Source of the DNA: Escherichia coli
Lineage (GTDB): Bacteria; Pseudomonadota; Gammaproteobacteria; Enterobacterales; Enterobacteriaceae
Reading direction: 5' to 3' (one strand)
DNA: 64,000 nt
NCBI RefSeq assembly: GCF_003334255.1
Contig: NZ_QOWU01000010.1
The translations under genes were made by a program, and so were the position numbers. Positions 36,739 through 64,000 of the stretch are shown in pieces; position 1 is the first letter of the stretch, and every line of letters begins with the position of its first letter. The notes under the pieces were generated by a model that did no database searches, was not told the origin of the DNA, and saw only the letters and a program-made list of their open reading frames with translations.

Positions 36739-36925
36739 GTGCATTCTCCTAAACAAAAGATGTGATTCAGTATACACAAAAAAGAATCACAAAAAACACT
36801 TGACCTGTGATTCAGTTGAATTTAATTTAAATCACACCTCAGTAAGAGGATGTAAACGACAACGCCCCGAACTGTTTGCGGCAGTAGCGGGGCGTCTAAC
36901 CAAACCGTTAACAGGAGTAACGATT

Positions 36926-37123: not shown

Positions 37124-37436
37124 CATGACCAATTACCAGTACCTGATTAATCCGCATTTTAACTGTGAGCATGATATTGCTAAAAAGGTTTATTCCGCTG
37201 CGGATGGGGCTACTGACAATATATCAATGGCTGTTTCGTCAATTGGTAGCCTGATGTGGTATGCGTCAGAAAATAAGGAATATGACGAAAAGGCCATGCG
37301 CATTGATATGGGTAATATTGGTTTGTTACTGGCAATGCTTGGACATTTTGATATTTCGTTACGGTGCACCATTGAAAATGCCACAGATGCATTAAATGCT
37401 ATAAAGAAAGCGAATACTGATTCAAATCGGGGATAA
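37116..37436 (+). CDS. Hypothetical protein (106 aa)
   Basis: ATG at 37116 overlapping the upstream stop (translational coupling); no recognisable motif. Confidence 0.5.
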   Translation: MPDMTNYQYLINPHFNCEHDIAKKVYSAADGATDNISMAVSSIGSLMWYASENKEYDEKAMRIDMGNIGLLLAMLGHFDISLRCTIENATDALNAIKKANTDSNRG

Positions 37437-37442
37437 ATAATC

Positions 37443-37742
37443 ATGAGAACGTATTTATCTGGCTTTACTGCCAGCGGTTATGCACACCCCAAAATTATCC
37501 CCGGCGCTATTTATCTGGATAAGAACGGTAACAGAGTAACGGTAAAAGAACTGATGTTTGACCGTGTGTATTTTATTCGTGATGGCTATTCATTTCATAG
37601 TTCGCTGAACGTGGAGATCTTTATTAGCAGATTCCGGCGGGAAATCCCGCTTTCCAGAAATAACCATGTGTCATGTATGGATGTTGATAAAAAACTACAG
37701 GAACTGAAAAACATGATTGCCGCGTGGAGAGAGCAGAAATGA
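37443..37742 (+). CDS. Hypothetical protein (99 aa)
   Basis: ORF directly upstream of and overlapping the primase gene start; no recognisable motif. Confidence 0.5.
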   Translation: MRTYLSGFTASGYAHPKIIPGAIYLDKNGNRVTVKELMFDRVYFIRDGYSFHSSLNVEIFISRFRREIPLSRNNHVSCMDVDKKLQELKNMIAAWREQK

Positions 37743-39556: not shown

Positions 39557-39569
39557 ACTTATGGAATAA

Positions 39570-39792
39570 CTGTTCACCACTGTTCACCCTGTCATAAATA
39601 TCTTTTGTATCAGTATGTTATAGGGTGAACAGTTATTTATGAACTGTTCACCAAACTATTCACTGTTCACCTTTTTGATTGTTTATTGAGCTTCAAGGGT
39701 GAACAGTGGTGAATAGTTGGTGAATAGTTTTTGTGAAACTGTTCACCCCTTAACATTATGAATTAAAAGATAAAATATCAAAAGGTGAACAG
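39570..39792. repeat. Iteron array (at least 8 copies of CTGTTCACC / GGTGAACAG in both orientations): candidate island replication origin
   Basis: Copies at 39570, 39580, 39624(inv), 39644, 39663, 39698(inv), 39739, 39784(inv) plus GGTGAATAG variants at 39708 and 39718, in AT-rich DNA just after the primase gene. Confidence 0.65.
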
Positions 39793-39843
39793 GTGAAGGG
39801 TTAAAACGCAAAAATTTTAATTTACTGCTGTGAGATAAAGCCT

Positions 39844-40089
39844 ATGACAGCGAAGCACACAAAAAAATCACAATCGCACGCCCTTGATTTGACGGAACAC
39901 TGGTTAAGGGTGTCGATAAAAATCATCGACCGCAACGCCGGGGAAGGATATGCGAAAGCACATCCCGAACTGATTAGCTCATTCATGACAACGGCAGCTG
40001 CAAACTTTGCCACGCTGACAGAACGGGAGATTGCCGAAGCGGAACAGGTGACAACCATCAACGTTAAAACCGGAGAGCAGACAGCATGA
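39844..40089 (+). CDS. Hypothetical protein (81 aa)
   Basis: ORF immediately upstream of and overlapping the ssb start (ATGA overlap); weak RBS. Confidence 0.4.
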   Translation: MTAKHTKKSQSHALDLTEHWLRVSIKIIDRNAGEGYAKAHPELISSFMTTAAANFATLTEREIAEAEQVTTINVKTGEQTA

Positions 40090-40496
40090 CAGCACAGATA
40101 GCAGCTTACGGGCGGCTGGTGGACGACCCGCAGGTAAAACAGACCAGTAAGGGCACACCGATGACGCTGGCGCGTATGGCGGTATCGTTGCCATGTAGTC
40201 AGGCGCAGGATGGGCAGGCGACGTTATGGCTATCGGTCATCGCATTTGGTAAGCAGGCCGACTTCCTGGCTAAACATCAAAAAGGCGACGTTGCCAGCGT
40301 ATCCGGCACGATGCAGGTCAGCCAGTGGACCGGACAGAACGGGGAAACGCGGCAGGGTTATCAGGTTATTGCAGACAGCGTAATCAGTGCCCGTGCGGCA
40401 CGTCCTGGCGGGAACAGACGCAAAACCACAGGCACACAGGGTAATCAGCCACCAGCGGGAGGCGATGACCCTTACGGTGACGGTATTCCGTTCTGA
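40086..40496 (+). CDS. ssb: Single-stranded DNA-binding protein (136 aa)
   Basis: OB-fold-like N-terminal region, Gly/Pro/Gln-rich linker and acidic C-terminal tail ...DDPYGDGIPF, the hallmark SSB protein-interaction tail. Confidence 0.75.
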   Translation: MTAQIAAYGRLVDDPQVKQTSKGTPMTLARMAVSLPCSQAQDGQATLWLSVIAFGKQADFLAKHQKGDVASVSGTMQVSQWTGQNGETRQGYQVIADSVISARAARPGGNRRKTTGTQGNQPPAGGDDPYGDGIPF

Positions 40497-40506
40497 GGGG
40501 GTGGCG

Positions 40507-40779
40507 ATGGTACATGACCGCATAGCGGAAGAACTCGAGGCGAAAGGCTTTTACCGGAGGGCGGCGGCGCGATGGGGTGAAGTCATGCTGCTGGTGGAGA
40601 CAGACAAGGAACGGCATCAGGTTACGATGCGACGGCTGGAATGTTCCAGGAAGGCACAGAAGCCACCGGAGCCGCCGGATAACTTCGGAGACCTGAGAAA
40701 GGCAGTAGATCGCACTTATGCTGAAATGGGTATAGATGGTGTAAGCGATGAAATATGGCGTAATTACCCAGACAGCTAA
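40507..40779 (+). CDS. PerC-family-like small transcriptional activator (90 aa)
   Basis: MVHDRIAEELEAKGFYRRAAARWGEVM... resembles the conserved PerC motif (LEAxGxxRRAAxRW) as I remember it; GAGGGGG RBS. Confidence 0.5.
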   Translation: MVHDRIAEELEAKGFYRRAAARWGEVMLLVETDKERHQVTMRRLECSRKAQKPPEPPDNFGDLRKAVDRTYAEMGIDGVSDEIWRNYPDS

Positions 40780-40784
40780 TCAAC

Positions 40785-40808
40785 AGCCGGAGAAATCCGG
40801 CTTTTTTT
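40785..40808 (+). terminator. Intrinsic terminator
   Basis: AGCCGGAGAAATCCGGCT followed by TTTTTTT. Confidence 0.65.
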
Positions 40809-40903
40809 GCACCAGTTGAAACGGTATGGCGCATTACCGGGTTTTCGTCACGGTCAGGCATAGTTACTATCTGAAACAAACAGACACAACAGAGGAAAAA
40901 ACA

Positions 40904-41128
40904 ATGCCGATGAAATTTGATGAGATATTAAAACAGCGTGATAAATACCATGCTGACAACATGGAGACGATGAGCATCAATGATTACCGCGCATTCCTGG
41001 AGACGGGCGCACTGATTGAAAAGGATCAGCATGGTTTTGTGAGATGTGCTCTGTCCGGTGAAATGCTGGCGGTAAATCCTGAACAGATAGATGCATTGAT
41101 AGAATTTCTGAAAGGGATCAGGGACTGA
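40904..41128 (+). CDS. Hypothetical protein (74 aa)
   Basis: Start at internal Met with GAGGAAAAAACA-ATG RBS; followed by a terminator almost identical to the one at 40785. Confidence 0.45.
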   Translation: MPMKFDEILKQRDKYHADNMETMSINDYRAFLETGALIEKDQHGFVRCALSGEMLAVNPEQIDALIEFLKGIRD

Positions 41129-41138
41129 GCACGCATAC

Positions 41139-41160
41139 AGCCGGAGCAATCCGGCTTTTT
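41139..41160 (+). terminator. Intrinsic terminator (near-duplicate of 40785-40808)
   Basis: AGCCGGAGCAATCCGGCT followed by TTTTT. Confidence 0.65.
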
Positions 41161-41420
41161 GTCATTTTTTGTAAATTATTTGTTCGTGGTTGTTCCACGT
41201 TGTTCACTGACAGGATCGGCATATTTTACCCGAACTGAATCATGAGTATTCTCGCCCGTGGTGCCAGGACGCTGGGGCCACTTTCCCGCCTGTTAATGTG
41301 CTCGCCAATATTCATTACCAGGCGGGAAAACGATCGGTGCGATTGCTGATTTCCTTATGAAAAACGGTTGAGTTTTTGCCGCGTCCTGGAGTTCCTTACT
41401 TAACCCCAGGACTTTTTTTT

Positions 41421-42578
41421 ATGCCGAGAATAATCGAATTACGCCAGCAGAAAACCGCCATTAAAAATCAGATGCGCGACATGCTGGAGAACGCGGAAAA
41501 AGAAAACCGCAGCCTTAACGATGCAGAGGGCGCAAAATTTGACGAATTACGCGCTAAAGCTGAATCCCTCGATAAAGACATTTCCCGCCTTGAAGCCATT
41601 GCAGACGAAGAGCGCAGCAAGCCAGGTAAAAGCAGCCAGACCACTGACCCGGCAGAACTCCGCAACTACATCCTGACAGGTGAAACCCGCGCATTAAGTA
41701 CAGGCGTTCCCGCTGATGGTGGTTATACCGTTATCCCCGAACTGAACACCGAAATCATGCGAATGCTGACGGATGAATCCACCATGCGCCGCATCTGTAC
41801 CGTGAAGAAAATCAGCAGCAACGAGTTTAAGCAGCTTGTTTCCGCTGGCGGTGCGACCGTTAACCACGGTGAAGAGGGTAAGACACGCGAACAGACCAGC
41901 ACCCCGCAGATTAACGAGGTGAGCATTAAGCTGTATCCGGTCTATGCGTACCCGCGCACCACACAGGAAATCGTGGATTTTTCCGATGTGGACATCCTTT
42001 CATGGCTGACGGGTGAGATTGGCGACACCTTCACGGAAACCGAAGAAAGCGATCTGGTTGTGGGCGACGGTGACAAAAAAGCAAAAGGTTTTTTATCCGT
42101 ACCCCGTGCAGAGAAGAACGACAAAGAGCGTGATTTTGGTACGTTGCAGGTAATTAAACCTTCCGAATCTCTGGCGTGGACATCTGCGGACCCGCTGATC
42201 GACCTGAAATTTGCATTACGTAAAAAATACCGCAAAAACGCGGTCTGGGTGGTTAACTCCACGACGGCGGCAAAACTTCAGAAGGTGAAGAACGCGAACG
42301 GTGATTACATCTGGCGCGACCGTTTACAGGCGGGTGATCCTGATACGTTGCTGGGCCTTCCGGTCGAATATCTGGAGTTTATGCCTGATAACGTTATTGC
42401 CCTGGGTGACTTCAAACGCGGTTACTACATTGTTGATCACGAAACAGGTGTTCGCACCAGACCGGACAACCTCACAGAGCCGGGCTTCATCAAAATTTTC
42501 ACGCAGAAATATTTAGGCGGTGGCGTGGTGGATTCGAACGCGATCAAGATTCTGGAACTGCCACAGGACGACGATTAA
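41421..42578 (+). CDS. Major capsid protein, HK97 fold, with N-terminal coiled-coil scaffolding (delta) domain (385 aa from ATG 41421)
   Basis: N-terminal coiled-coil region (IELRQQKTAIKNQMRDMLENAEKENRSLNDAEGAKFDELRAKAESLDKDISRLEAIADEE) followed by a region typical of HK97-family capsid proteins; ORF track start 41376 is a TTG extension; strong terminator follows. Confidence 0.85.
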   Translation: MPRIIELRQQKTAIKNQMRDMLENAEKENRSLNDAEGAKFDELRAKAESLDKDISRLEAIADEERSKPGKSSQTTDPAELRNYILTGETRALSTGVPADGGYTVIPELNTEIMRMLTDESTMRRICTVKKISSNEFKQLVSAGGATVNHGEEGKTREQTSTPQINEVSIKLYPVYAYPRTTQEIVDFSDVDILSWLTGEIGDTFTETEESDLVVGDGDKKAKGFLSVPRAEKNDKERDFGTLQVIKPSESLAWTSADPLIDLKFALRKKYRKNAVWVVNSTTAAKLQKVKNANGDYIWRDRLQAGDPDTLLGLPVEYLEFMPDNVIALGDFKRGYYIVDHETGVRTRPDNLTEPGFIKIFTQKYLGGGVVDSNAIKILELPQDDD

Positions 42579-42590
42579 CAGCATACAGAA

Positions 42591-42620
42591 GGGGCTTAAA
42601 AGCCCCTTTAGTGTTTTATG
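42591..42620 (+). terminator. Intrinsic terminator after major capsid gene
   Basis: GGGGCTT-AA-AAGCCCC hairpin followed by a T-rich tract. Confidence 0.65.
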
Positions 42621-42632
42621 GGTGAAAAAATT

Positions 42633-43190
42633 ATGAAGAGTATGGAAATCCGGTCATCGGAAATCACCACCAGCGCCAGCAACACGCTTACAGGCTACGT
42701 TGTTCGCTGGGATAAGCTTTCAGAGCTGCTATGGGGGGAGTTTTACGAAAAATTCCAGCGGGGAGCGTTTACTGAATGGCTTGCGGCGGGTAATGACGTT
42801 CGCGGCCTGTATGAGCATGACCACAGCATGTTGCTGGGGCGTACCCGTTCCGGCACGCTGAAACTGGAAGAGGACGAAACAGGGTTACGCTTTGAACTGA
42901 CCCCACCGGATACCAGTACAGGGCGCGACGTTATCGAACTGGTTAAGCGTGGGGACATCTCGGGGATGAGCTTTGGCTTTCGCTCCCGTAAGGATGTATG
43001 GGATACCACAACAGATCCATGCGTGCGCACCGTGCTGGTGGCGGAACTGTACGAAATTACCGTTACATCGGTACCGGCTTACCCCGATTCCGGCGTGGAG
43101 CTGGCCCGCCGTTCCCTGTATGAGCAGCACCCCGAAAAAATGCCGCGTGCGGATAATCGCCGCTGGTGGGTGGATTTAGCGGGGGTGTGA
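42633..43190 (+). CDS. Prohead maturation protease, HK97 family (S78-like), about 186 aa
   Basis: Sequence typical of HK97-type prohead proteases (GYVVRWDKLS..., YEHDHSMLLGRTRSGTL, GDISGMSFGF); start ambiguous among ATG 42618/42633/42642. Confidence 0.8.
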   Translation: MKSMEIRSSEITTSASNTLTGYVVRWDKLSELLWGEFYEKFQRGAFTEWLAAGNDVRGLYEHDHSMLLGRTRSGTLKLEEDETGLRFELTPPDTSTGRDVIELVKRGDISGMSFGFRSRKDVWDTTTDPCVRTVLVAELYEITVTSVPAYPDSGVELARRSLYEQHPEKMPRADNRRWWVDLAGV

Positions 43191-43191
43191 T

Positions 43192-44403
43192 ATGTGGCTT
43201 TTCAGAAGAAAAAAAGAGCAGCGCAGCATGACGCTTGATGAATTTATGGCGCTGGCTGGCACATCGAACACGGGGGCGGGTGAGTACGTATCATCGGGGA
43301 CAGCGGAATCACTGCCCGCCGTCATGAACGCCGTGACGGTCATCTCTGAGGCGGTGGCTACCATGCCGTGTTACCTGTACCTGGTACGCAATGAGAAGGG
43401 GAAGGAGGCCCGCGAGTGGCTTGATTCTCATCCGGTCGATCACATCCTCAACGAGCGCCCGAACGCGTGGCAGACTCCCTACCAGTTTAAGCGAATGATG
43501 ATCCGCCACTGCCTGTTAAACGGTAATGCTTATGCGGTGATTCAGTGGGGGCGTGATGGTTTTCCGGTGGCTTTACATCCTTACCCGCCGCAGTCGGTGA
43601 ACGTGGAGCAGACAGGCGAACACAACTGGCGCTACTGCATCACTGACGCCTACACCGGAAACACCCGCAACTATTTACCGTGGGAGGTTCTCCACCTTCG
43701 TTACTCCACGGATGACGGTTTTATGGGGCGCTCACCTGTAACCATCTGCCGCGAATCGCTGGGGCTTGGGCTGGCCCAACAACGCCACGGCGCGAGCGTG
43801 ATGCGTGATGGCATGATGGCGGCAGGGGTTATCACGTCAGGCGAATGGCTGGACGGCGTGAAGGGCAAACAGGCATTAGCCGCACTGGAACGCTACAAAG
43901 GGGCCAGAAACGCCGGAAAAACGCCCATCCTTGAAGGGGGTATGAGCTATCAGCAGCTGGGCATGAGTAATCAGGATGCTGAATGGCTGGCCTCCCGTCG
44001 CTTCACCATTGAAGACATCGCCCGAATGTTCAACGTCTCGCCGATTTTTCTGCAGGAATACAGCAACAGCACCTACAGCAATTTCAGCGAGGCAAGCCGC
44101 GCATTTCTCACCATGACAATGCGCCCGTGGCTGGCGAACTTTGAGCAGCAGATAAAAAACGCCCTGCTGGTGGCCTCGCCTGTACCTGGTATCCGGTATC
44201 AGGTGGAGTTTGACAGCGCGGACCTGTTACGGGCCACACCTGGCGAACGCTTTGCCACCTATGAACGCGGCATCAAATCCGGCGTTATGTGCCCGAACGA
44301 AGCCCGCGAACGTGAAGGGCTGTCCCCGCGTGATGGTGGTGATGAGTTCAGCCAGGCATGGAAACAGGAAGTAAAAATCAGCGAGGGAGAAAAACCGGAA
44401 TGA
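43192..44403 (+). CDS. Portal protein, HK97 family (403 aa)
   Basis: Size, position and conserved portal-like core (…LLNGNAYAVIQWGRDG…, …ILEGGMSYQQLGMSNQDAEWL…); immediately follows the protease with 1-nt spacing. Confidence 0.8.
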   Translation: MWLFRRKKEQRSMTLDEFMALAGTSNTGAGEYVSSGTAESLPAVMNAVTVISEAVATMPCYLYLVRNEKGKEAREWLDSHPVDHILNERPNAWQTPYQFKRMMIRHCLLNGNAYAVIQWGRDGFPVALHPYPPQSVNVEQTGEHNWRYCITDAYTGNTRNYLPWEVLHLRYSTDDGFMGRSPVTICRESLGLGLAQQRHGASVMRDGMMAAGVITSGEWLDGVKGKQALAALERYKGARNAGKTPILEGGMSYQQLGMSNQDAEWLASRRFTIEDIARMFNVSPIFLQEYSNSTYSNFSEASRAFLTMTMRPWLANFEQQIKNALLVASPVPGIRYQVEFDSADLLRATPGERFATYERGIKSGVMCPNEAREREGLSPRDGGDEFSQAWKQEVKISEGEKPE

Positions 44404-44738
44404 ACATAGGGCGACTGCGTGACAGGGTAACGATTCAGACCCTGAAACAGACCAGGGATATAACCGGCGAAATACTCGAAACGTGGGAGGACGGTCACAC
44501 ACTCTGGGCAAGCGTGAACATGATCAGCAGCAAGGAGGCCATTTCATCGGGTGCAGAGCTGGCGATTGGTACCGTAAGGATCTGGATACGGTACCGGAAG
44601 GACATCAATGCCACCAGCCGGATAAAGGTCAGTACGGGGCCGCTGGCGGGGCGTGTACTGAATATCATCGGGCAGCCGCTGCCGGATGCCGCCAGGACAC
44701 GCCTTGAAATTCTTTGTCGTGAGGGCGCGGAAAAATGA
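44400..44738 (+). CDS. Head closure / head-tail adaptor protein (112 aa)
   Basis: MNIGRLRDRVTIQTLKQTRD... resembles the head-tail joining family; ATGA overlap with portal stop; GAGGGAGA RBS. Confidence 0.7.
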   Translation: MNIGRLRDRVTIQTLKQTRDITGEILETWEDGHTLWASVNMISSKEAISSGAELAIGTVRIWIRYRKDINATSRIKVSTGPLAGRVLNIIGQPLPDAARTRLEILCREGAEK

Positions 44739-45031
44739 CAGAAGAACTTATCACCCTGGAAGAAGTGAAACTCCATTGCCGCATCGATGGCGACGAGGAA
44801 GACCAGTTAATCAGCGGATACATCGCCGCATCGCTTGAGGCGTGCCAGATACACATAGGCAGGCGCTTTGATGACGGGCTGGAGTTCACGCCAGCCATAA
44901 AGATTGGCTGCATGATGTTTATCGCTCACCTGTATGAAAATCGCCAGATTGTCGCGGATAACGCAAAAACACGCGTACCCATGACGATTGGTGCACTCTG
45001 GACGGCTTACCGTGATGTGGGGGTGTACTGA
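44735..45031 (+). CDS. gp6-like head-tail connector protein (98 aa)
   Basis: MTEELITLEEVKLHCRIDGDEEDQLISGYIAASLEACQIHIG... resembles the gp6-like connector family N-terminus. Confidence 0.7.
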   Translation: MTEELITLEEVKLHCRIDGDEEDQLISGYIAASLEACQIHIGRRFDDGLEFTPAIKIGCMMFIAHLYENRQIVADNAKTRVPMTIGALWTAYRDVGVY

Positions 45032-45471
45032 TGCCGTGGCAACCATTAAGACGATGCACAGAACCAGGCTGTAACAGGCGCGTGAAGTCCGGCAAGTGTG
45101 AGGAGCACAGGCGGGCGGCATGGCGTGCAGAGGATGCCAGACGAGGACACCGCCGCGCGCGTGGGTACTCCAGACAGTGGGACAAATACCGCGCCATGTA
45201 TCTGAGTAAAAACCCGTTATGCGTGCGATGCCTTGAGAAGGGGATATATACGCCCGCCGTGGTGGTGGATCACATTATCCCGATTAATGGCGGTGATGAT
45301 GTTCTCTTCTGGCCCGAATGGAACCATCAGCCATTGTGCCAGGCGTGCCATAACCAGAAAACGAAATGGCTTGATCCGGCAACAAAAAGCAAGCGTGCCG
45401 CAGGTGGATTTCGTGAAGAGGAAGAACGGGCCGCTAACCGCAATAACTGGATGTATGACGCTGATGAATGA
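45031..45471 (+). CDS. HNH endonuclease (packaging-associated), 146 aa
   Basis: Cys pairs plus VVDHIIPINGGDD...NHQPLCQACHNQK (HNH motif); located immediately upstream of TerS as in HK97-like cos packaging modules. Confidence 0.85.
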   Translation: MPWQPLRRCTEPGCNRRVKSGKCEEHRRAAWRAEDARRGHRRARGYSRQWDKYRAMYLSKNPLCVRCLEKGIYTPAVVVDHIIPINGGDDVLFWPEWNHQPLCQACHNQKTKWLDPATKSKRAAGGFREEEERAANRNNWMYDADE

Positions 45472-45759
45472 GCGGGAACAAAACCGCCTTATCCGTGGAC
45501 TTATAAGGCAGCGTGACGCATGGAAGACACAGGAAACAGGGCATAAAGATAAAGCGTCAGGACGCGCAGAACGCATCACAGCGAAGCGATTAACCGACCG
45601 TGACCGCGAGGTTATGGAATGTTTCCGCAATCGCTGATGAGGCTGTATGACGGGGTGGGGGGCGTTTTCAGGACAAACCCGACCCCGCCGGGCACCGACC
45701 GCCTCCTCAAATTTTTATGCACGGGAATTTTTTGAAAAATAATCTGACGAAAAATAAGC

Positions 45760-46116
45760 ATGGCAAGACCACCGAAAGCCCCCGCCTACCTGGATGACAT
45801 CGCCGTGAAGCAGTGGCGGGAAAAATCGCGGCAGCTTGCGGAACGGGGAGACCTGACCCCCGCCGACTGGAGCAATCTGGAACTGTATTGTGTCAACTAC
45901 TCCATTTACCGGAAAGCCGTCGCAGACCTTGCGGCGCGCGGGTTCAGCATTGTTAACAGTCAGGGCGGCGAGAGCAGAAACCCCGCATTAAGCGCGAAAT
46001 CAGACGCTGAAAGGGTGATGATAAAAATGGCCTCCTTGCTCGGTTTTGACCCGATAAGCCGCCGTAAAAACCCACCGGAAACAGAAGAAGAGGACGAGCT
46101 TGACCGCCTGGAATAA
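45760..46116 (+). CDS. Terminase small subunit, P27 family (118 aa)
   Basis: Resembles P27-type TerS (AVKQWREKSRQLAERGDLTPADWSNLELYCVNYSIYRKA); overlaps TerL start. Confidence 0.8.
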   Translation: MARPPKAPAYLDDIAVKQWREKSRQLAERGDLTPADWSNLELYCVNYSIYRKAVADLAARGFSIVNSQGGESRNPALSAKSDAERVMIKMASLLGFDPISRRKNPPETEEEDELDRLE

Positions 46117-47761
46117 GTACGCAGAAGACGTAAAAACGGGCAAAATTCAGGCCTGTAAACGGTTAAAACAGGCCGTTAAACGGTACTTTTCGGACCTTAA
46201 AAGCCCCCTTTACACGTTCGATCGTGAGGTTGTGGATCGGTTTATTGCCTTTTCCAGGGTGTGCCCGCACGTAAAAGGGCCGATGCGTGGCAGACCCATT
46301 GAGCTGGAGCCGTGGCAGCAGTTCGCCTTTGCGTGCATCCTCGGCTTTAAGGTTAAGGCCACCGGACGGCGCAAATATACGAGCGCCTTTATCGAAGTGC
46401 CGCGCAAAAATGCTAAATCAACGACCGCCGCGATTCTGGCTAACTGGTTTCTGATTATGGAGAACGGTCAGCAGGATATTTACACCGCAGCGGTGAGCCG
46501 TGACCAGGCGAGGATCGTATTTGATGATGCGCGTCAGATGTGCATTTTATCCCGACCGTTACGCAGGCGGGTGAATATTCAGGCGCATAAGGTGATACAC
46601 CCGAAAACCAACAGCCTGTTAAAGCCGCTGGCAGCAAAAGCGGCAACTATCGAGGGCACAAACCCCAGTCTTTCTATCGTGGACGAATACCACCTACACC
46701 CCGACAACGGCGTATATTCTGCGCTTGAACTGGGGATGGGGGCACGTCCCGAAGGGCTGTTATTTGCCATTACCACATCGGGAAGTAACGTCGTTTCAGC
46801 CTGTAAGCAGCATTATGATTATTGCTGCCAGATCCTGGACGGCGAAGAGGTTAACGAATCGCTTTTTGTGCTGATTTACGAACTGGACGACGAAAACGAG
46901 GTTGATGATCCGGAGATGTGGATAAAGGCGAACCCTAATATCGATGTTTCCGTGGATCGTGAAAAACTGGCCTCAACCATTCAGAAAGCGCGGGGTATTC
47001 CGTCGCAATGGGTGGAGATGATGACAAAGCGATTTAATATCTGGTGTCAGGGGACTACCCCGTGGATGGGTAATGGTGCATGGGCTGAGTGTGCCGGAAC
47101 GTTCACGGAGGAAGATTTACACGGTCAGGAGTGTTACGCGGGGCTGGACTTATCATCAACCAGCGATATTTCCAGCGTGTGCTATGCCTTTCCGGTCGGT
47201 AAAACCATTATGATGATTTCCCGTCATTATCTGCCGGAGTTCCAGCTACAGAACCCCGCCAATAAAAACCGCGCTGTCTATCGTCAGTGGGCTAAAGCAG
47301 GCTGGATACGCACAACGCCTGGCGACTGCATTGATTACGACCGGATCAGAGATGACATCATGCAGGACGCGGAGAAATTTAATATCAGGCTGGTGGGCTT
47401 TGATACGTGGAACGCCACGCATCTCAGAACGCAATTACAGGGGGCAGGTTTTGAGGTGGAGCCGTTCCCGCAAACCTACCTCAGATTCAGTCCGGCGGCG
47501 AAATCGTTCGAAGTTTTTGTTAACCGCAGGGTGATTGTGCATCGTGGCGATCCGGTGTTGTCCTGGTCGATGAGTAACGTCGTGATGCAGAGTGACGCGA
47601 ACGCCAATATCAAGCCGAACAAGAAAAAATCACCGAACAAGATAGACCCGAGCGTGGCGGCGCTGATGGCGTTTGGTACATTCCAGGCAGAGCATGAGGA
47701 TTTTGCTTTTGATATAAGCGACAGCCACCGCCAGAAACTGGAAGAATTTAGCGGGGTGTAA
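46100..47761 (+). CDS. Terminase large subunit (553 aa; apparent TTG start)
   Basis: ATPase and nuclease domains in typical TerL arrangement; no in-frame ATG/GTG near the 5' end, TTG at 46100 preceded by GAGGA. Confidence 0.85.
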   Translation: MTAWNKYAEDVKTGKIQACKRLKQAVKRYFSDLKSPLYTFDREVVDRFIAFSRVCPHVKGPMRGRPIELEPWQQFAFACILGFKVKATGRRKYTSAFIEVPRKNAKSTTAAILANWFLIMENGQQDIYTAAVSRDQARIVFDDARQMCILSRPLRRRVNIQAHKVIHPKTNSLLKPLAAKAATIEGTNPSLSIVDEYHLHPDNGVYSALELGMGARPEGLLFAITTSGSNVVSACKQHYDYCCQILDGEEVNESLFVLIYELDDENEVDDPEMWIKANPNIDVSVDREKLASTIQKARGIPSQWVEMMTKRFNIWCQGTTPWMGNGAWAECAGTFTEEDLHGQECYAGLDLSSTSDISSVCYAFPVGKTIMMISRHYLPEFQLQNPANKNRAVYRQWAKAGWIRTTPGDCIDYDRIRDDIMQDAEKFNIRLVGFDTWNATHLRTQLQGAGFEVEPFPQTYLRFSPAAKSFEVFVNRRVIVHRGDPVLSWSMSNVVMQSDANANIKPNKKKSPNKIDPSVAALMAFGTFQAEHEDFAFDISDSHRQKLEEFSGV

Positions 47762-47774
47762 TGAGGTCAGCAGC

Positions 47775-48056
47775 ATGACAGAAGCCGAAATAACGGGATT
47801 AATCCGCCGCGTTGCCGGAATCAGCCAGCAGGCTGACGAACAGGCCACGCAGCCGGACAGCGTGACAGCCGAAAACTATGCGCGTGTTGTTGCTGAGGTG
47901 ATGCGCCGTGATGGTATAGAACTTAATGGCGTGGATATGCGCAACATACGAACCAGAGTTCTTGAGTTGCTGGCCTACCGTCGCCGCGTGGAGATGTATC
48001 GGGAGAAGGAGAAAATAACGTACCACTGGAAGAAGCCGGAGCGGTTGCGGCGGTAA
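47775..48056 (+). CDS. Hypothetical protein (93 aa), last gene of island
   Basis: ATG 47775 with GAGG RBS 8 nt upstream; no recognisable motif. Confidence 0.5.
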   Translation: MTEAEITGLIRRVAGISQQADEQATQPDSVTAENYARVVAEVMRRDGIELNGVDMRNIRTRVLELLAYRRRVEMYREKEKITYHWKKPERLRR

Positions 48057-48349
48057 CTGGTTGATATTCCCGACGGACCAAAAATGGGTGGCTACATCCC
48101 TCGCTTCTGAGGACTGTTAACAAGCTGCCTGAAAGACAGTCACAAACTACGAAATTTTCGCAGTTTAATTAATGATCAGCTTAATCGCTAACCCGCTGAT
48201 ATTTTCGGAAACCTCAATTTGAGGAAGTCGGCGCGGTAACTCGCTGAACTTTAAGCAAAGTGCAAAATTGCGCTTGCTGAATAATCATTATGATTACGCA
48301 GATGATTAAGGAATGACCGAAGGCGGAAATTCGCCTGTGGTTAATGGGG

Positions 48350-48462
48350 GAGTTGCAGATCTGCAACTCGACCATGAAACTACGGAAACTACCCGTAGTT
48401 TGGGTAGTAAGAGTAACACCCAGATTTTGGGTCTTACTCGTGATACCCAAATTTGGGGTATC
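48350..48462. repeat. Cluster of perfect and near-perfect palindromes in the island right arm
   Basis: Perfect 20-bp palindrome GAGTTGCAGATCTGCAACTC (48350-48369); AAACTACGG/CCGTAGTTT stem (48376-48400); nested AGTAAGA...ACCCA...TGGGT...TCTTACT (48406-48439); GATACCCAAATTTGGGGTATC (48442-48462). Confidence 0.6.
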
Positions 48463-48724
48463 AGTGGCAACCATAACGACTTTCGTTACGGTTGATGCTT
48501 TTACCCCATTGGGGGAAAGGTATTACGATAATCATAACACCTACCGAACAGGTAAAGCCCACCAGCCTGATTAACGTTTAACCGGAAAAAAATTCCGGTA
48601 GGTGGGGATCCCCATATCGACATTAACGCCCCTCATGAATTGGTGCGCTTCCCCCTGGAAAGATGATCCGCCTGTATATTTCTTGTGTCTATTTGTTCCA
48701 CGTTGTTTCATACAGTGCACCGAA

Positions 48725-48747
48725 CGGTGTAGTCACTGGTGTAGTCA
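48725..48747 (+). repeat. Tandem 10-bp repeat GGTGTAGTCA x2 (second copy of candidate arm-type site)
   Basis: CGGTGTAGTCACTGGTGTAGTCA, same orientation as 34092-34115; preceded by TTGTTCCACGTTGTT, which recurs at 41190. Confidence 0.5.
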
Positions 48748-48821
48748 TTTTGCGATTTTTGGCACTTTTTGCGGTGAAAATTATTTAATTAAATCAACGT
48801 GTTATGTGAAATAAGTTATAT

Positions 48822-57750: not shown

Positions 57751-58365
57751 CTATCGAAACAGCGGTTTAACCGCGACAGGAATTAACAGTTGTGATTGCC
57801 ATTGCGCCAGCGTTAAGCGAGCCAGTTCACCCAGTGCACGGTAGAAAGGGTGTTCTGCTTTTTCGATAAAAACATCAAGAAAACGTGTTGACCACGGAAA
57901 AAGGTGCCATGCCAGCAATTCTTCGCATTCTGTCTGGCGACCATTCTCCGCCAACCACGCAGCCATCAACAGCAGTGAACCAAAATGATCTTCCGGTTCG
58001 TTTTGCTTCATTTCAAACTGAATGCCTTTCTCGCGCATCCACTGACGAAGTGCCAATGTTGAATCGCCAAACAGCACAGATTCGCGATCCAGCCAGACCG
58101 ACCCCCACGGCGGAGACGGCAGTGCCCACGGGCCGACAAACAAACGCTGCCAGGCCTGGGCGTGAGTCTCTTCACACTGTGTCTGAAAAGCCGTCACCAG
58201 CGGCGCTAATGACGCTTCTGGTAGAGGCCACTGAGTTTCCCAGCCGTCACTGGTGAGTACCGCAACCAGAGGTGCGGCTTCCGCACTCTCTGGAGCGTAA
58301 TAAAACAGCGCGCCCAACACGCGCGCCGCGACAGAAAAATTATCTTGCTGTGAAAAATGGGTCAT
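57751..58365 (-). CDS. dmsD: DmsD, Tat-proofreading chaperone for DMSO reductase (204 aa)
   Basis: Start at Met 4 of ORF (MTHFSQQDNFSVAARVLGALFYYAPESAE...), TorD/DmsD family. Confidence 0.9.
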   Translation of the reverse strand: MTHFSQQDNFSVAARVLGALFYYAPESAEAAPLVAVLTSDGWETQWPLPEASLAPLVTAFQTQCEETHAQAWQRLFVGPWALPSPPWGSVWLDRESVLFGDSTLALRQWMREKGIQFEMKQNEPEDHFGSLLLMAAWLAENGRQTECEELLAWHLFPWSTRFLDVFIEKAEHPFYRALGELARLTLAQWQSQLLIPVAVKPLFR

Positions 58366-58407
58366 TCCTAACATCCTGAAATGTGCGGGTTGCCCCGCAC
58401 CAATTTG

Positions 58408-59262
58408 TTAACCTGCAATAGCCATTCCTACTGTCATGTGCAGGCCATAAAAGAGCACACGCCCGATCATCTCACCGCCAAGTATGAGGATTAGCCCCAG
58501 AATAAGTCCGGCAACGTGAGGTTCACGGCGACGAATGAGCGGGCAAAGCCAGCATCCAAGACCTGCGCATAACAATACCACACGCCAGACCTGTAAGGAG
58601 GCGTAATCTGGTACCAGTGCGCTGGCTTGTTGCACGGATGAGTGAATAGACGCCAGAGACAAACCTTGCAGCACAATCACCCCGGCACAAGCGATCAGCG
58701 CCAGAACGCTAATGATGGCAAATGGTGTGGTATTAAATGTAACGCGAGCTGCCCGCAGAATTGCGGCAGCAAGTATTGGACCGCTCAACAATACCGTCAG
58801 GAAGAAAGCCAGCGTAGTGTAACCGTTATGCCAGGTTGGCACGGTGTCGATTTGATACACGCAGGTCATCATCCAGACGAAAATGACGCCGAGCGCCATG
58901 CTGAAAAGTAACCAGAGTTTCCCCAACGCTTGCGGCATTTTACCGATGACTGCCACCAGCCACCATAATCCGCCAACGGCAAAAAATATGGAACCGGCAG
59001 CAATCTCGTTACTCAGACCAGAAGCTCCGATTCGATTCAGCGAGTTAAACGCCCGCAGTGGCGATCCCAGGTGCATGACAGAGGCAATAAACCCGACGCC
59101 CATCAACAGCCAGAGGAAAAACATGCCACGGACAATACGCTGACGGTCTGCGTCATTTTTGGCGGCGAACCAGCCAATTCCGCTAACAATCAGCGCGCCT
59201 ACTACGCATTGACCCAATACGGTAAAGATAACCAGTGGCCACTCATGCCATCCATTTCCCAT
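58408..59262 (-). CDS. ynfH: YnfH, DMSO-reductase-type membrane anchor subunit (DmsC paralog), 284 aa
   Basis: Start at Met 81 of ORF (MGNGWHEWPLVIFTVLGQCVVGALIV...) with GGAGG RBS; polytopic membrane protein. Confidence 0.88.
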   Translation of the reverse strand: MGNGWHEWPLVIFTVLGQCVVGALIVSGIGWFAAKNDADRQRIVRGMFFLWLLMGVGFIASVMHLGSPLRAFNSLNRIGASGLSNEIAAGSIFFAVGGLWWLVAVIGKMPQALGKLWLLFSMALGVIFVWMMTCVYQIDTVPTWHNGYTTLAFFLTVLLSGPILAAAILRAARVTFNTTPFAIISVLALIACAGVIVLQGLSLASIHSSVQQASALVPDYASLQVWRVVLLCAGLGCWLCPLIRRREPHVAGLILGLILILGGEMIGRVLFYGLHMTVGMAIAG

Positions 59263-59263
59263 T

Positions 59264-59818
59264 TTACACTTCCTCCGGATTAGCCAGATAACCAGTGGTA
59301 TCGCCGGTCGGGCGGCTGTTGGCGTTAGGTTTGATAACGATATTGGGTTTTGTGAAATGCGCGCGCGGCAGTGGCGCGACGGCAGCAAGAGTGCCGTGCT
59401 TCTGGCGCAGCTCTTCAATTGGACCGAACTCAAGTGCACGCAGCGGGCAGGATTCGACACATATGGGTTGTTTCCCCTCGGCGACGCGCGAATAACAACC
59501 ATCGCACTTCGTCATGTGCCCTTTTTCAGCATTGTACTGTGGCGCGCCGTACGGACAAGCCATGTGGCAGTAGCGGCAGCCGATACAAACATCTTCATCA
59601 ACCACCACAAAGCCATCTTCACGCTTATGCATTGCGCCGCTGGGGCAGACTTTTGTACATGCGGGGTCATCGCAATGGTTACAGGAGATGGAGAGATAAT
59701 AAGCGAACACGTTCTGGTGCCAGACGCCATTATCTTCCTGCCAGTCGCCGCCAGCGTATTCATAAATACGGCGGAAACTGACTTCCGGGCCAAGATCTTT
59801 AAAGTTGTTGCTCACCAC
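59264..59818 (-). pseudogene. ynfG: ynfG 3' portion: 4Fe-4S subunit of DMSO-reductase paralog, N-terminal about 25 codons (first Cys cluster) replaced by prophage-derived sequence
   Basis: ORF reads MVSNNFKDLGPEVSFRRIYEYAGGDWQEDNGVW...; from KDL onward it matches DmsB/YnfG, but the conserved MTTQYGFFIDSSRCTGCKTCELACKDY N-terminus is absent and sequence upstream runs into a phage integrase gene. Confidence 0.7.
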
Positions 59819-59855
59819 TTGAAAGCGTGAGCTTAACTCATTCTAATTCAATTAC

Positions 59856-61019
59856 TTATGCTTTCTTTGCATCCTCAAAAACCTCAGGGTGGGACAAATT
59901 TGGGACATCGTCACCCAATATGTCGTCAATTTTCCTCGCGTGCTCTGTCAAATGATTAGGTGCAAGGTGTGCGTACCTACGCACCATTTCGATAGACTCC
60001 CAGCCGCCCATTTCCTGAAGTACTGACAGTGGTACACCTGACTGAATTAACCAACTGGCCCAGGTATGGCGGAGGTCATGAAAACGGAAATTTTCAATTC
60101 CTGCCCGACGACATGCTGTTAACCACGATGTGTTATAGTCCAGGCGCATCTTTCTGATGCTTGGTGTCATTGTCCCGTCAGGCCTTCTGGCAGCAGTGGT
60201 ATAAACAAACACCCAGCGGTGATGTTTGCCTATTTGATCACGCAACACCTTGCAGGCAGTGTCATTCAGTGCGACCCCAATAGCGCGGTTTGACTTACTG
60301 TCTTCAGGGTTTACCCAGGCAACACGTCGCTGCATATCGATTTGTTGCCACTCCAGATTAATAATGTTTGATCTCCTCAGGCCAGTTGCCAGTGCAAATT
60401 TAACTACAGATTTCAGGGGATCAGAACATGCATCAATGAGTCTCCTGGCTTCTTCTTTTTCCAGCCATCTCACGCGTTTGTTTTTTACGGCAGGTATTTT
60501 GATTACAGGTGCTTTTTCAAGCCATTTCCAGTCTCGCTCTGCGGCGCGCAGAATAGCCTTGATCATTGCCAGGTGTGTTGCTTTTGTTTGCGTGCTCACC
60601 GATTTAGGTATATAGGCTGGTGGTTCTTTCCCTTTTCTTAATGCAGCCTCCACCTGCAACTTCCATCTCTCCTTTGTTTTTCGGTTATACGCTTTGCTGA
60701 TAACTGAGTAGATCATTGCCTCCGATATATCCTTAATCCTTATTCCCTCGAAATGCTCAATCCAGAATGCGATTCTGGATTTATCGGAATCGATGGATTT
60801 CTTGTCGGCTTTTTCCTCAAGCCATCTCAGGCAGGCTTCTTCGAAAGTGACATCTGGCATATCCCCCAGTCTGTCTACTCGCCAGAGTTCTGCTTTTCGC
60901 TTGTCGTGCAACTCCTGAGCTTGCCGCTTGTCCTTTGTGCCAAGAGACTCCTTAATTCGCTTCCCGCCCGGGAGCGAGTACGAGGCGTACCATATTTCAC
61001 CTCTGCGGAAGAGTGACAT
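59856..61019 (-). CDS. int: Lambdoid prophage tyrosine integrase, DLP12 IntD-like (387 aa)
   Basis: [47 protein letters not shown]... closely resembles IntD as remembered; catalytic [10 protein letters not shown]...Y region present. Confidence 0.9.
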
Positions 61020-61246
61020 TTTCTTTCCTCTGTTATGCCATCACCCGCGCTCACCTGGACAGTATGCAGCGGTGAATGAAGTGCTGCAATGCAGGCTTGC
61101 CGGGTTGTGAGATAAGGTGATCTTTTACCGGAAGAATTTTTTCGGGTTGCCTGTAGTCGGCCCGTTCGTATCCAGTTAACAGCTGTTGGCCTTGATATCT
61201 TGAGAAACTTACAGGCCTCTTTGAGGGTGATACTGTGTGAATCCAT
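60875..61246 (-). CDS. xis: Excisionase-like HTH protein (start at internal Met [36 protein letters not shown]); 3' extent uncertain
   Basis: Excisionase-type HTH motif directly upstream of int; the open frame continues 145 nt into int in another frame, so the true stop or a frameshift is uncertain. Confidence 0.5.
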
Positions 61247-61280
61247 ATTTTCGCCATTAAAAACCGCCCGAAGGCGGTTG

Positions 61281-61541
61281 TCAGTTGATTGATATGCGGC
61301 GCATTTTTCGAAGGCTGGCAATATGCTTTTCCTTCTCAATTTCTGCTTTAATCATGTGTAGTTCGTTGTGATCGATTCGCTCAAATTCTGCATTAAATGC
61401 GCTAATTGAAGCGGCTCTGGTTCTCCCATCCAGCCTGCGGAAGATTACCTGCGTCAGAGTGATTTTGCAGACTTCAACCGGATAGTTGTTGGCGTCGACG
61501 AAGGACTGCCCGCGCTGGATCAGAACGAACACAGGTAGCAT
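61281..61541 (-). CDS. Hypothetical prophage protein (86 aa)
   Basis: ORF between exo and xis on the same strand; poor RBS spacing, so the call is weak. Confidence 0.3.
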   Translation of the reverse strand: MLPVFVLIQRGQSFVDANNYPVEVCKITLTQVIFRRLDGRTRAASISAFNAEFERIDHNELHMIKAEIEKEKHIASLRKMRRISIN

Positions 61542-61579
61542 TCCTTAACTGTCATATCATTTGCACCTCGTTGCTACGG

Positions 61580-62260
61580 CTATCGCCATTGCTCCCCAAA
61601 TACAAAACCAATTTCAGCCAGTGCCTCGTCCATTTTTTCGATGAACTCTGGCACCATTTCGTCAAAACCAGCCATGTATTTTTCATCCCGCTCGACCACG
61701 ACATAATGCAGGCCTTCACGCTTCATACGTGGGTCATAGTTGGCAAAGTACCAGGCATCTTTTCGCGTCGCCCACATGCTGAATTGCACCTGGGCCATGT
61801 AAGCTGATTTTATTGCCTCGAAACCACCGAGCCGGAATTTCATGAAATCCCGGGAGGTAAACGGACATTTCAGCTCAAGGCCTTTACCGTCACTGCATAA
61901 ACCATCGGGAGAGCAGGCTGTACGCATACTTTCGTCACGATAGATGATCGGGGATTCAGTAACATTCACGCCGGAAGTAAACTCAAACAGAGCTCTGGCG
62001 TCGTTCTCGTACTGTTTTCCCCATGCCAGGGCTTTGGCGTTAACTTCCGGGGCCACACCCGTGCAGACCTCAGCCAGCAGAGTGTGGAAGTAGGACATTT
62101 TCATGTCAGGCCATTTCTTTCCTGAGCGGGGTTTTGCTATCACGTTGTGAACTTCTGAAGCGGTGATGACGCCGAGCCGTAATTTGTGCCACGCATCATC
62201 CCCCTGTTCGACAGCTCTCACGTCGATCCCTGTACGTTGCAGGATAATGTCCGGTGTCAT
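61580..62260 (-). CDS. exo: Lambda-type exonuclease (Red alpha), 226 aa
   Basis: [68 protein letters not shown]... near-identical to lambda Exo as remembered. Confidence 0.95.
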
Positions 62261-63042
62261 GCTGCTACCTTCTGCTCTGTGACTTTCTGTTTCAGGAATC
62301 CAAGAACCTTCACAGCTTCAGCCTGTGTTAGTTCTGAAGATGTGTAAATGTTGCGGCGAAAAATCTGGGAACAGAGCGGCAACAGGTCGTCATCCCACGT
62401 TTTTTCCATGGAAGTAAGAAGGGCGTTAATTTCCGACATGGTTTCTTCGTTAACCGGGGTGATGTCGCGTTCCGGCTGACGTTCTGTAGTATATGCAGTA
62501 TTTTCGACAATACGCTCGGCTTCATCCTTGTCATAGAGGCCAGCAAATCCGAAGGCCAGGCGAGCACACTGAATCATGGCTTTGTGCCGTAACATCCGTT
62601 TGGGATGCGACTGCCACGGTCCGGTGATTTCTCTGCCTTCGCGGGTTTTGAATGGTGCGCGGCGACATTCATCCATCCACTCGGTAACGCAGATCGGGTG
62701 ATTGCGATCTTTGCGGTAAATCCGGCATGTACAGGACTCATTGTCCTGCTCAAAGTCCATGCCATCAAACTGCTGGTTTTCATTGATAATGCGGGACCAG
62801 CCATCAACGCCAACCACCGGAACGATGCCGTTCTGCTTGTCAGGGAAGGCGTAAATTTCTTTCGTCCAGGGATTAAGGCCGTACTGGTTGGCGACGATCA
62901 ACAATGCGATAAATTGCGCATCGCTGGCATCACCTTTAAATGCCGTCTGGCGAAGAGTGGTGATTAGTTCCTGTGGGTCGACAGAATCCATGCCGACACG
63001 TTCAGCCAGCTTCCCTGCCAGCGTTGCGAGTGCTGTACTCAT
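62257..63042 (-). CDS. bet: Lambda-type Bet (Red beta) single-strand annealing protein, 261 aa
   Basis: [66 protein letters not shown]... matches lambda Bet. Confidence 0.95.
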
Positions 63043-63047
63043 CCGTT

Positions 63048-63344
63048 TTATACCTCTGAATCAATATTAATTTGGTGACGGGCGATGGTTTCAGCCATGT
63101 AGCGGATGTGTTCTGCCATGCGTTCCTGAAAATCGACATCGTCATCAAATGCACGGGAAATAGCTTTTTTGCTGGCCCCGTGACGTTGCAGATTATCGAT
63201 GCATAGCGATTCAAACAGGTGTTGGGGCAGACCTTTTTCCAGGTCGTCTGCCAGCTCAGCTTCAGTTTCTTCACGGGCAATTTGCTGGTAGTGTCGTGCC
63301 CATGACTGCTCTTCAATGCGATCGGGGATAAGCCAGGCATTCAT
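63048..63344 (-). CDS. gam: Gam, RecBCD inhibitor (98-aa short form)
   Basis: ...[86 protein letters not shown] matches lambda Gam. Confidence 0.92.
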
Positions 63345-63835
63345 GATTTATCACCTCCGAAATTTTCAAGCCTGTTGGCAATCATGATGGCGATATCAGG
63401 GATTGCTGGCGCTGTGGCTATACATGCGGGGTTGGCGCACAAACCATAGACGGCGGCAATCACGAGCTGTCTTTTCCAGTCGAGAGTTACTGGCTCAGAA
63501 TTGGCGTCATCGCCGGACGTATCACTGCCTGGCTCGTTCTGAACAACGGTTTCGCCCTCCTGAGCGGCATCAACAGAGTTTTCCTGAATGATCTTCTCCT
63601 CAGTTTGTGCTGAGTCTTCTCCATCAGCGGCGTCATTTTCTCCAAAAGTTTCTGTGTAAGTGCTATCGCCCATTACCGCACTACAGTCAGGGCAGTTACC
63701 CCCGCCAGTCTGACCACAGACGCGGCAGTTTTTTTCCAGCTCCGGTTGCGCTACTGGCCCTGGCTGTTGCTCTTCTGACCCGTTTTGTTGCGTATCCGGG
63801 CTGTTTTGTCCCGCTTCTGGGGCAATTTGTTCCAC
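63341..63835 (-). CDS. Hypothetical acidic prophage protein with CxxC...CxxC motif (164 aa)
   Basis: ORF upstream of gam in the same operon; highly acidic, two Cys pairs (CRVCG...CPDC), hydrophobic C-terminus; not lambda Kil. Confidence 0.5.
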
Positions 63836-64000
63836 TTTGGACTGATTCTGGTCCTCAGTGTCGCGAGTCTGGATCCCCTTGAACCGCCCCGGGTTTCCTG
63901 GAGAGTGTTTTATCTGTGAACTCAGGCTGCCAGATCATCGTTTCCGATGGAAGCATAATAAGCTTTTTCTGCTTCTGCCGGAGGAGTATGGCCCAGCCTT

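Follow-up and report, generated by a model that had tools for sequence, protein, structure and literature searches.

The end of the window (the whole stretch of 64,000 nucleotides of Escherichia coli DNA that was analysed) carries, at positions 59797-64000, what is very probably the attL end and the early-left operon of a lambdoid prophage of the group of PhiR5_2, POC-J13 and 75/02 Stx, which is 933W-like and belongs to the Sepvirinae. The prophage is inserted inside ynfG, at the attachment core of this group. A lambdoid prophage splitting ynfG had been proposed by an earlier, sequence-only reading of this DNA, and the proposal holds, given that the N-terminal codons of ynfG are absent and that the core TTTAAAG is found at the junction. 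The same reading took the insertion to be specific to the strain, in agreement with a survey of 5426 complete E. coli genomes, among which only 84 have both the junction and the left arm.

The attachment site in ynfG

The ynfG gene is intact in K-12, as stated in the sequence-only reading. In the window it is a pseudogene, represented by a 3' fragment on the minus strand (59264..59803) that comprises codons about 28-205 and lies within an open reading frame at 59264-59818. Alignment of this minus-strand reading frame with YnfG of K-12 (205 amino acids) covers residues 22-205 with 97% identity, and the true homology begins at FKDLGPEV. The gene lacks its first 27 codons, including those for the first cysteine group of the protein (CTGCKTCELAC), and a search for these 5' codons across the window by tblastn and blastn revealed no second copy. 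The profile TIGR02951 (DMSO_dmsB) matches the fragment from profile position 25 onward, and the same ynfG sequence in strains G1/2 and HCP4S3_I4 is labelled by PGAP as 'ynfG, incomplete, missing N-terminus'.

The attL core, the crossover point between bacterial and phage DNA, is the 7-bp sequence TTTAAAG (CTTTAAA on the plus strand) at 59797..59803, and was defined by a three-way comparison of the attB of K-12, the junction in the window and the int-distal junction of G1/2. The match between the window and genomes that bear the satellite island of this region without the prophage stops at 59803, and in GenBank the sequences deposited for PhiR5_2 and 75/02 Stx start directly after TTTAAAG. The phage arm that extends from the core to the stop codon of int (59804..59855) is nearly identical, with one mismatch, to bases 1-50 in PhiR5_2 and in 75/02 Stx. 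Restoration of ynfG at attB would give the join sequence GATTTTAAAGATC. The use of this site by related phages has been demonstrated by experiment, both for POC-J13, which sits in ynfG in lysogens of MG1655 (PMC4193171), and for 75/02 Stx, which integrates at ynfG/S1742 (PMC5447701). Furthermore, the Stx1a prophage of RM10410 (O113:H4), with 62.5 kb, spans from ynfG to ynfG (PMC10562709).

Integrase and excisionase

The first genes of the leftward, minus-strand block are those of an integrase and an excisionase. The integrase gene (59856..61019, minus strand) encodes a protein of 387 amino acids that matches the integrase families PHROG 10426 and PHROG 1, and that is 86.8% identical to IntD of K-12 over its whole length. 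The protein contains the HxxR motif (HDLR) at residues 314-317 and the RRY motif. With this full-length similarity and these catalytic motifs, it is a tyrosine recombinase of the IntD subgroup, in line with the IntD-like integrase described in the sequence-only reading. Given that the protein is 100% identical to the integrase of PhiR5_2 and 99.7% identical to that of 75/02 Stx, it also falls in the specificity group of the integrases of the Sepvirinae-type phages that integrate in ynfG.

The excisionase gene (xis, 60875..61246, minus strand) encodes 123 amino acids and overlaps the start of int by 145 bp. Its product was correctly recognized in the sequence-only reading, since it matches the excisionase family PHROG 2907 with E=9.7e-44, with residues 1-116 on positions 2-117 of a profile of 117; the score with TIGR01764 ('excise') is barely over the cut-off. 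The 74 C-terminal amino acids are 89% identical to the xisD remnant of K-12, and the protein is of the xisD type of DLP12. No xis gene is annotated in PhiR5_2 or 75/02 Stx, and the annotation table of G1/2 has at this place only a 66-bp pseudogene fragment with an HTH label.

In DLP12 of K-12, IntD has the same length as the integrase of the window, and xisD overlaps intD just as xis overlaps int. However, DLP12 is a cryptic prophage located at the argU tRNA gene, while the prophage of the window is located in ynfG, and the 51 differences between the two integrases are clustered at residues 101-150 and 251-300.

The Red module and the interrupted recE-like gene

The leftward block on the minus strand has the order int, xis, DUF4222, exo, bet, gam and recE-like. 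The small DUF4222 protein (61281..61541, minus strand) matches PHROG 285 with E=8e-33 and is called 'DUF4222 domain-containing protein' by PGAP. It is followed by exo (61580..62260, minus strand), which codes for the lambda exonuclease (Red alpha) and is 96.5% identical to Exo of lambda over 226/226 amino acids, and by bet (62257..63042, minus strand), which codes for the single-stranded DNA annealing protein (Red beta), is 93.9% identical to Bet of lambda over 261/261 amino acids and scores 167 bits with TIGR01913 (bet_lambda), for which the cut-off is 77. The RecBCD inhibitor gam (63048..63344, minus strand) is present in the 98-amino-acid form, with 83.7% identity to residues 41-138 of Gam of lambda and a full-length match to PHROG 259 (E=8.5e-57). 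At the DNA level, exo-bet-gam is 91.5% identical to lambda over 1742 bp. These adjacent and intact orthologues constitute a lambda Red system, and the exo-bet-gam module noted earlier is confirmed by full-length alignments to the lambda proteins.

The sequence-only reading had further described the whole operon as nearly identical to that of lambda. This applies to part of the block, namely to Exo, Bet and, at a lower identity, Gam, which share with lambda the gene order and the overlaps, but not to the integrase and the excisionase. These are unrelated to Int and Xis of lambda at the BLASTP level, and for the integrase no match to lambda Int was found at E<1e-3. Moreover, lambda has ea8.5, ea22 and other genes between xis and exo, where the window has the single DUF4222 gene, and in lambda kil and cIII adjoin gam, where the window has the recE-like gene. 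A scan of positions 59000-64000 with Rfam gave no match.

The recE-like gene is present as the C-terminal fragment of a recE-family gene (63341..63879, minus strand) that would code for 690 amino acids when intact. The fragment is matched by exonuclease families of PHROG and is collinear with the 2073-bp gene of G1/2 and PhiR5_2 annotated as 'RecE family exodeoxyribonuclease'. It is interrupted by the right end of an IS1203 element of the IS3 family (63880..64000, minus strand), with the transposase running leftward and ending near 63922. All of the bases of this end (121/121) are the same as in a copy of EDL933 annotated as 'IS3-like element IS1203 family transposase', and the terminal repeat at its start is TGAACCGCCCCGGG. 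The window terminates within the IS1203, at position 64000. Neither the recE-like gene nor the IS1203 that interrupts it appears in the sequence-only account.

The junction between the recE-like gene and the IS has no counterpart in the collections searched. When the last 400 bases of the window were compared with 5426 complete E. coli genomes, no locus was found that spans both sides, and the exact 46-bp junction was found neither in GTDB representative genomes nor in JGI metagenome contigs. The recE-like gene of G1/2 is uninterrupted at this position. Strain HCP4S3_I4, which carries the same type of prophage, has copies of IS3-family elements in int as well as in the recE-like gene. An apparent 100% match of this strain to the window was rejected as an artefact of joined pieces, with the IS copies at other positions.

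Related phages and the remainder of the prophage

Among isolated phages, the left arm of the window is closest to PhiR5_2 (99.0%, over 97% of the query), followed by phiSTEC1589-Stx1c (97.5%) and by 75/02 Stx and POCJ13 (94%). All the phages and prophages found to carry the left arm including the recE-like gene (PhiR5_2, phiSTEC1589-Stx1c, 75/02 Stx, POCJ13 and the prophages of G1/2 and G6/7) have 61-63 kb and are 933W-like. A second group (PhiR26_1, 2G7b and ev243) has an int-to-gam arm that is 87% identical, genomes of 45-49 kb and no recE-like gene.

PhiR5_2 (PV340546.1) is a stx-negative phage of 61.5 kb that was propagated on K-12, and is mentioned only in passing in the literature searched. 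It has 99.0% DNA identity to positions 59806-63880 and the same gene order as the window (int, DUF4222, exo, bet, gam and recE-like), but its recE-like gene is free of the IS1203 found in the window. POC-J13 and 75/02 Stx are Stx1-converting Shigella phages of the Sepvirinae (Diegovirus). The left arm of 75/02 Stx is 94% identical in DNA, in addition to its nearly identical integrase, and the synteny and spacing of the early-left genes in the window are those of PhiR5_2 and 75/02 Stx. POC-J13 and 75/02 Stx carry stx1, while the prophage of G1/2 and PhiR5_2 are without stx, and the immunity regions of the Stx1-converting Shigella phages differ from those of the relatives of the window prophage. 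Lambdoid phages are mosaics, and this, like the existence of the second group with its smaller genomes, counts against the assignment of the prophage to the PhiR5_2 group.

The nearest genome is that of G1/2, which is 99.976% identical over positions 39000-63880 of the window (24.9 kb) and 100% identical over the 4.08 kb of prophage that precede the IS, with every gene intact. Its sister strain G6/7 also matches the window at 99.976-100%. The prophage of G1/2 has 61.9 kb, is bounded by both ynfG fragments and is covered by PhiR5_2 over at least 77% at 98% identity; a blastn search with stx1 of 75/02 Stx found no stx in it or in PhiR5_2, whereas Stx-converting phages have stxA/stxB between Q and the esterase gene nanS-p. 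From the terminase through the tail-fibre genes it is 89-90% identical to 933W, and its exo-bet-gam is 92% identical to that of 933W. The short-tailed phage 933W (Sepvirinae, Traversvirus) nevertheless has a different integrase, uses the wrbA site and carries stx2. The virion module of the 933W type, with an N4-gp56-like capsid, a giant LPD protein and a short tail, is present in both G1/2 and G6/7. The prophage of G1/2 contains many frameshifted structural genes, and the reading that it is decayed was rejected because the same genes are intact in G6/7, including those for the capsid, the portal, the large terminase and LPD38; most of these frameshifts are probably assembly errors. In both strains the prophage is interrupted by an IS1, and its gene for the small terminase is frameshifted; the prophage of this lineage may for this reason be incompletely functional.

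Judged by these relatives, the part of the prophage that lies beyond the window is most likely a stx-negative, short-tailed phage genome of about 62 kb. Given that the window stops inside an IS at position 64000, the prophage of this strain could be truncated or rearranged. In the extreme case, a deletion mediated by the IS after the insertion of IS1203 would have left int-xis-exo-bet-gam alone, with no structural or lysis genes. The break of the recE-like gene by IS1203 exactly at the end of the window, the absence of its junction from all the collections searched and the IS3-family copies in HCP4S3_I4 are compatible with such a deletion, which is nonetheless unlikely, because the 4.08 kb before the IS are identical to G1/2 with all genes intact, the closest strains G1/2 and G6/7 retain a prophage of full length, and HCP4S3_I4, even with two IS copies, has kept the early and regulatory regions.

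The prophage and the satellite island

The right edge of the satellite island lies at about 48.8 kb, which confirms the distance of about 11 kb to the prophage given in the sequence-only reading. From this proximity it had been proposed that the prophage is an obvious candidate helper of the island, supplying tails and lysis. Prophage and island are found together in 17 genomes. If they were independent, about 3 such genomes would be expected, given that 84 of the 5426 genomes have the prophage and 186 have the island; many of the 17 are, however, clonal relatives. On the other hand, 169 of the 186 island carriers are without the prophage and 67 of the 84 prophage carriers are without the island.

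According to published experiments, capsid-forming PICIs (cf-PICIs) take siphovirus tails of the long non-contractile kind, and a helper that was a podovirus provided induction and lysis yet no tails, leaving tail-less capsids. In EDL933, which itself carries 933W, no resident prophage helps or induces EcCIEDL933. The annotation tables of PhiR5_2, 75/02 Stx, G1/2 and G6/7 contain no tape-measure, tail-tube or tail-terminator genes, and from these annotations of its left-arm relatives the prophage would not have the long non-contractile tail of a cf-PICI tail donor.

There is a small chance that the prophage is a partial helper, which induces the island and/or lyses the cell while the tail-less capsids gain the tails of other phages. 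Such a scheme with two helpers has been published for KpCIDSM30104 with a podovirus, related prophages have a lysis cassette, and prophage and island show a mild co-occurrence; however, induction requires a specific phage factor, and EDL933 with its 933W failed to induce its island. Lysis on behalf of the island is, from the gene content of the relatives, plausible for the ynfG prophage. It is more doubtful that this short-tailed prophage is both the inducing and the lysing partner without donating tails, with the capsids of the island completed by the tails of unrelated siphoviruses, although if this is true the strain would provide a natural instance in E. coli of the scheme with two helpers described for Klebsiella. 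A helper role of the ynfG prophage for this capsid-forming island that includes tails as well as lysis is very improbable, in spite of the closeness of the two elements, their partly clonal co-occurrence and the holin, lysozyme and spanin genes of related prophages, because the relatives have short-tailed virions of the 933W type and cf-PICIs need siphovirus tails, to which are added the negative result for the resident prophages of EDL933 and the many genomes with one element only.

Formation of the locus and its meaning

In the preferred reading, that of a prophage of the PhiR5_2, POC-J13 and 75/02 Stx group, the IntD-family integrase would have recombined attP with the 7-bp core TTTAAAG in codons 26-28 of ynfG. 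The gene would thereby have been split, and its first 4Fe-4S cysteine group, together with the side that holds the ynfEF promoter, would lie about 62 kb away, as in the related genomes. The split would inactivate YnfG and sever ynfH-dmsD from the promoter of the operon. The operon formed by int, xis, DUF4222, exo, bet, gam and the interrupted recE-like gene is expected to serve integration, excision and lambda Red recombination and, by analogy with lambda, to be transcribed from pL after induction. The copy of IS1203 would have been inserted into the recE-like gene later.

The phage group and its attachment site in ynfG are already published, and isolated phages as well as 84 complete genomes of E. 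coli have near-identical copies of the left arm, so that the importance of the finding beyond a correct annotation is small. For the satellite island the result is negative, in that the neighbouring prophage is probably not its tail donor. For the strain, it means that ynfG is a pseudogene and that the ynfEF promoter is parted from ynfH-dmsD. Stx1-converting phages of Shigella and E. coli bear a left arm of this type and, since it is common to these phages, the occupied ynfG site marks a strain that is able to host, or has hosted in the past, this type of phage.

Integration into ynfG

On the minus strand of the window, clcB, dmsD and ynfH are followed by an ORF (59264-59818) that matches K-12 YnfG from residue 22 onward only, with 97% identity, the true homology starting at FKDLGPEV. 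In K-12, ynfG is intact, as the sequence-only reading stated, with 205 codons between ynfF and ynfH, the first 27 of which encode the cysteine group C-T-G-C-K-T-C-E-L-A-C. The N-terminus of YnfG gave no match anywhere in the 64-kb window, searched both as protein and as DNA, and the NCBI pipeline calls the identical ynfG sequence of two other strains "incomplete, missing N-terminus".

The junction was mapped by a three-way alignment of the K-12 attB (GATTTTAAAGATCTT), the window junction (CAACTTTAAAGATCTT) and the junction at the other end of the prophage in E. coli G1/2 (GATTTTAAAGTTGGT). The sole bases common to all three are TTTAAAG, which places the attachment core at 59797-59803 (plus-strand coordinates). 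In GenBank, the sequences of phages PhiR5_2 and 75/02 Stx begin with the bases immediately after this core, and in genomes that contain the neighbouring island without the ynfG prophage the match to the window stops at 59803. The window junction is a clean site-specific integration junction and, being proximal to int, is named attL according to the lambda and 933W convention. Together with the left arm, it is present in 84 of 5426 E. coli genomes (RefSeq complete-genome set), bearing out the strain-specific lambdoid prophage proposed earlier.

The genes ynfH and dmsD (57751-59262) are on the same strand as the prophage int and now lie downstream of it, with a distance to the ynfEF promoter of ~62 kb in related genomes. 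For expression they may rely on phage read-through or on internal promoters.

Genes of the left arm

The int gene (59856-61019, minus strand) codes for a 387-aa tyrosine recombinase that is 100% identical to the Int of PhiR5_2 and 99.7% identical to that of Shigella phage 75/02 Stx. It is IntD-like, as first read, with 86.8% identity to K-12 IntD, and the 51 differences between the two are clustered at residues 101-150 and 251-300, which, judging from this comparison, may be specificity-determining parts. The attachment sites of int and of K-12 intD (1316-2479 of the K-12 sequence) differ, being ynfG and the argU tRNA gene (DLP12), respectively.

The start of int is overlapped by 145 bp by xis (60875-61246, minus strand), a 123-codon ORF that matches PHROG excisionase family 2907 from end to end (E=1e-43). 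In its C-terminus, Xis shares 89% identity with the xisD remnant of K-12, whose overlap with intD has the same arrangement. The records of PhiR5_2 and 75/02 Stx have no gene annotated for xis, and at its position in G1/2 PGAP gives only a 66-bp HTH pseudogene fragment, which appears to be a systematic gap due to the overlap with int.

Beyond a DUF4222 gene (61281-61541, minus strand), exo, bet and gam adjoin on the minus strand as a lambda-like Red module. The near identity to lambda claimed for the whole block holds for Exo (96.5%) and Bet (93.9%), less so for Gam (83.7%), and not for the rest; at the DNA level exo-bet-gam is 91.5% identical to lambda over 1742 bp. No RNA families were found by Rfam in 59000-64000.

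Two features add to the earlier observation, a recE-like gene and IS1203. The fragment of the recE-family gene (63341-63879, minus strand) runs rightward from 63341, its 3' end overlapping the start of gam, and corresponds to the C-terminal part of a PhiR5_2 protein (3536-5608 of the phage sequence). The intact protein, which also adjoins gam, has 690 aa, and its Pfam match is confined to an N-terminal Exonuc_VIII segment (residues 55-197, E=2.6e-10). Given that no nuclease domain was detected by Pfam, the name "exodeoxyribonuclease VIII / RecE family" may overstate the function of this protein.

The recE-like gene is cut at 63880 by the terminal repeat of IS1203 (IS3 family), the right end of which occupies 63880-64000 and is identical to the annotated EDL933 copy in 121 of 121 bases; the window therefore ends inside the insertion sequence. 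The exact junction is absent from the 5426 complete E. coli genomes, GTDB representative genomes and JGI metagenome contigs.

Relatives of the prophage

Among isolated phages, the left arm is 99.0% identical to PhiR5_2 (61.5 kb), 97.5% to phiSTEC1589-Stx1c and 94% to 75/02 Stx, classified in Sepvirinae, genus Diegovirus, and to POCJ13. The nearest genome is that of G1/2, from healthy human faeces, with 6 mismatches in the 24,881 bases of 39000-63880. Its prophage has 61.9 kb, ends at an 84-bp ynfG 5' fragment beside ynfF, contains no stx, and is 77% covered by 50 kb of PhiR5_2 with 98% identity. From terminase through tail-fibre genes it is 89-90% identical to phage 933W. That the copy in the present strain, cut by IS1203, is a truncated remnant is unlikely.

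Several structural genes of G1/2 are marked as frameshifted. These are probably mostly assembly errors, because the same genes are intact in the sister strain G6/7, the exceptions being the small terminase and a gene interrupted by IS1. In both strains a late-region gene of the prophage is interrupted by IS1A (24373-25767 in the G1/2 sequence, 23009-24403 in that of G6/7) and the small-terminase gene is frameshifted, and for this reason the prophage of this lineage may be partly defective. The right-end cargo of both comprises a PAPS reductase gene paired with an IbrB-like one, a gene with a Panacea domain, and antirepressor genes.

In Shigella flexneri, POC-J13 inserts site-specifically into S1742, and in lysogens of E. 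coli MG1655 into its homologue ynfG (PMC4193171); 75/02 Stx has the same attachment site (PMC5447701), and an O113:H4 strain carries a 62.5-kb Stx1a prophage with ynfG on both sides (PMC10562709). The element type, integrase and attachment gene have thus already been described, and the ynfG prophage, as a member of this phage group, is in itself of low interest.

Relation to the satellite island

The 15-kb island inserted in tqsA (about 33950-48800) is of the capsid-forming PICI type. It encodes an integrase, a primase, ssb, a PerC-like regulator, a capsid protein, a protease, a portal, proteins for head closure and connection, an HNH endonuclease and TerS/TerL, and has no tail genes, which is the published layout of these elements. 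At least 80% of it is held by 70 complete genomes, mostly O26, O111, O103 and other STEC, with 97.9% identity, and its packaging half by 186 genomes.

Capsid-forming PICIs join their own small capsids to long, non-contractile siphovirus tails, such as those of HK106, and helper mutants in tape-measure or major-tail genes abolish transfer. A Klebsiella island induced by a podovirus was released as tail-less capsids, the podovirus being unable to supply tails. EDL933 carries 933W, yet no resident prophage helps its island. The ynfG prophage had been put forward as a helper supplying tails and lysis. Tail donation is unlikely, since all relatives examined are 933W-like in their virion genes; the annotations of G1/2, G6/7, PhiR5_2 and 75/02 Stx contain no gene for a tape measure, tail tube or tail terminator. 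The two elements occur together in 17 genomes versus about 3 expected under independence, a count inflated by clonal sets, and the majority of genomes with one of the elements do not have the other. A role of the ynfG prophage in lysis, or in inducing the tqsA island, is possible, though hypothetical.
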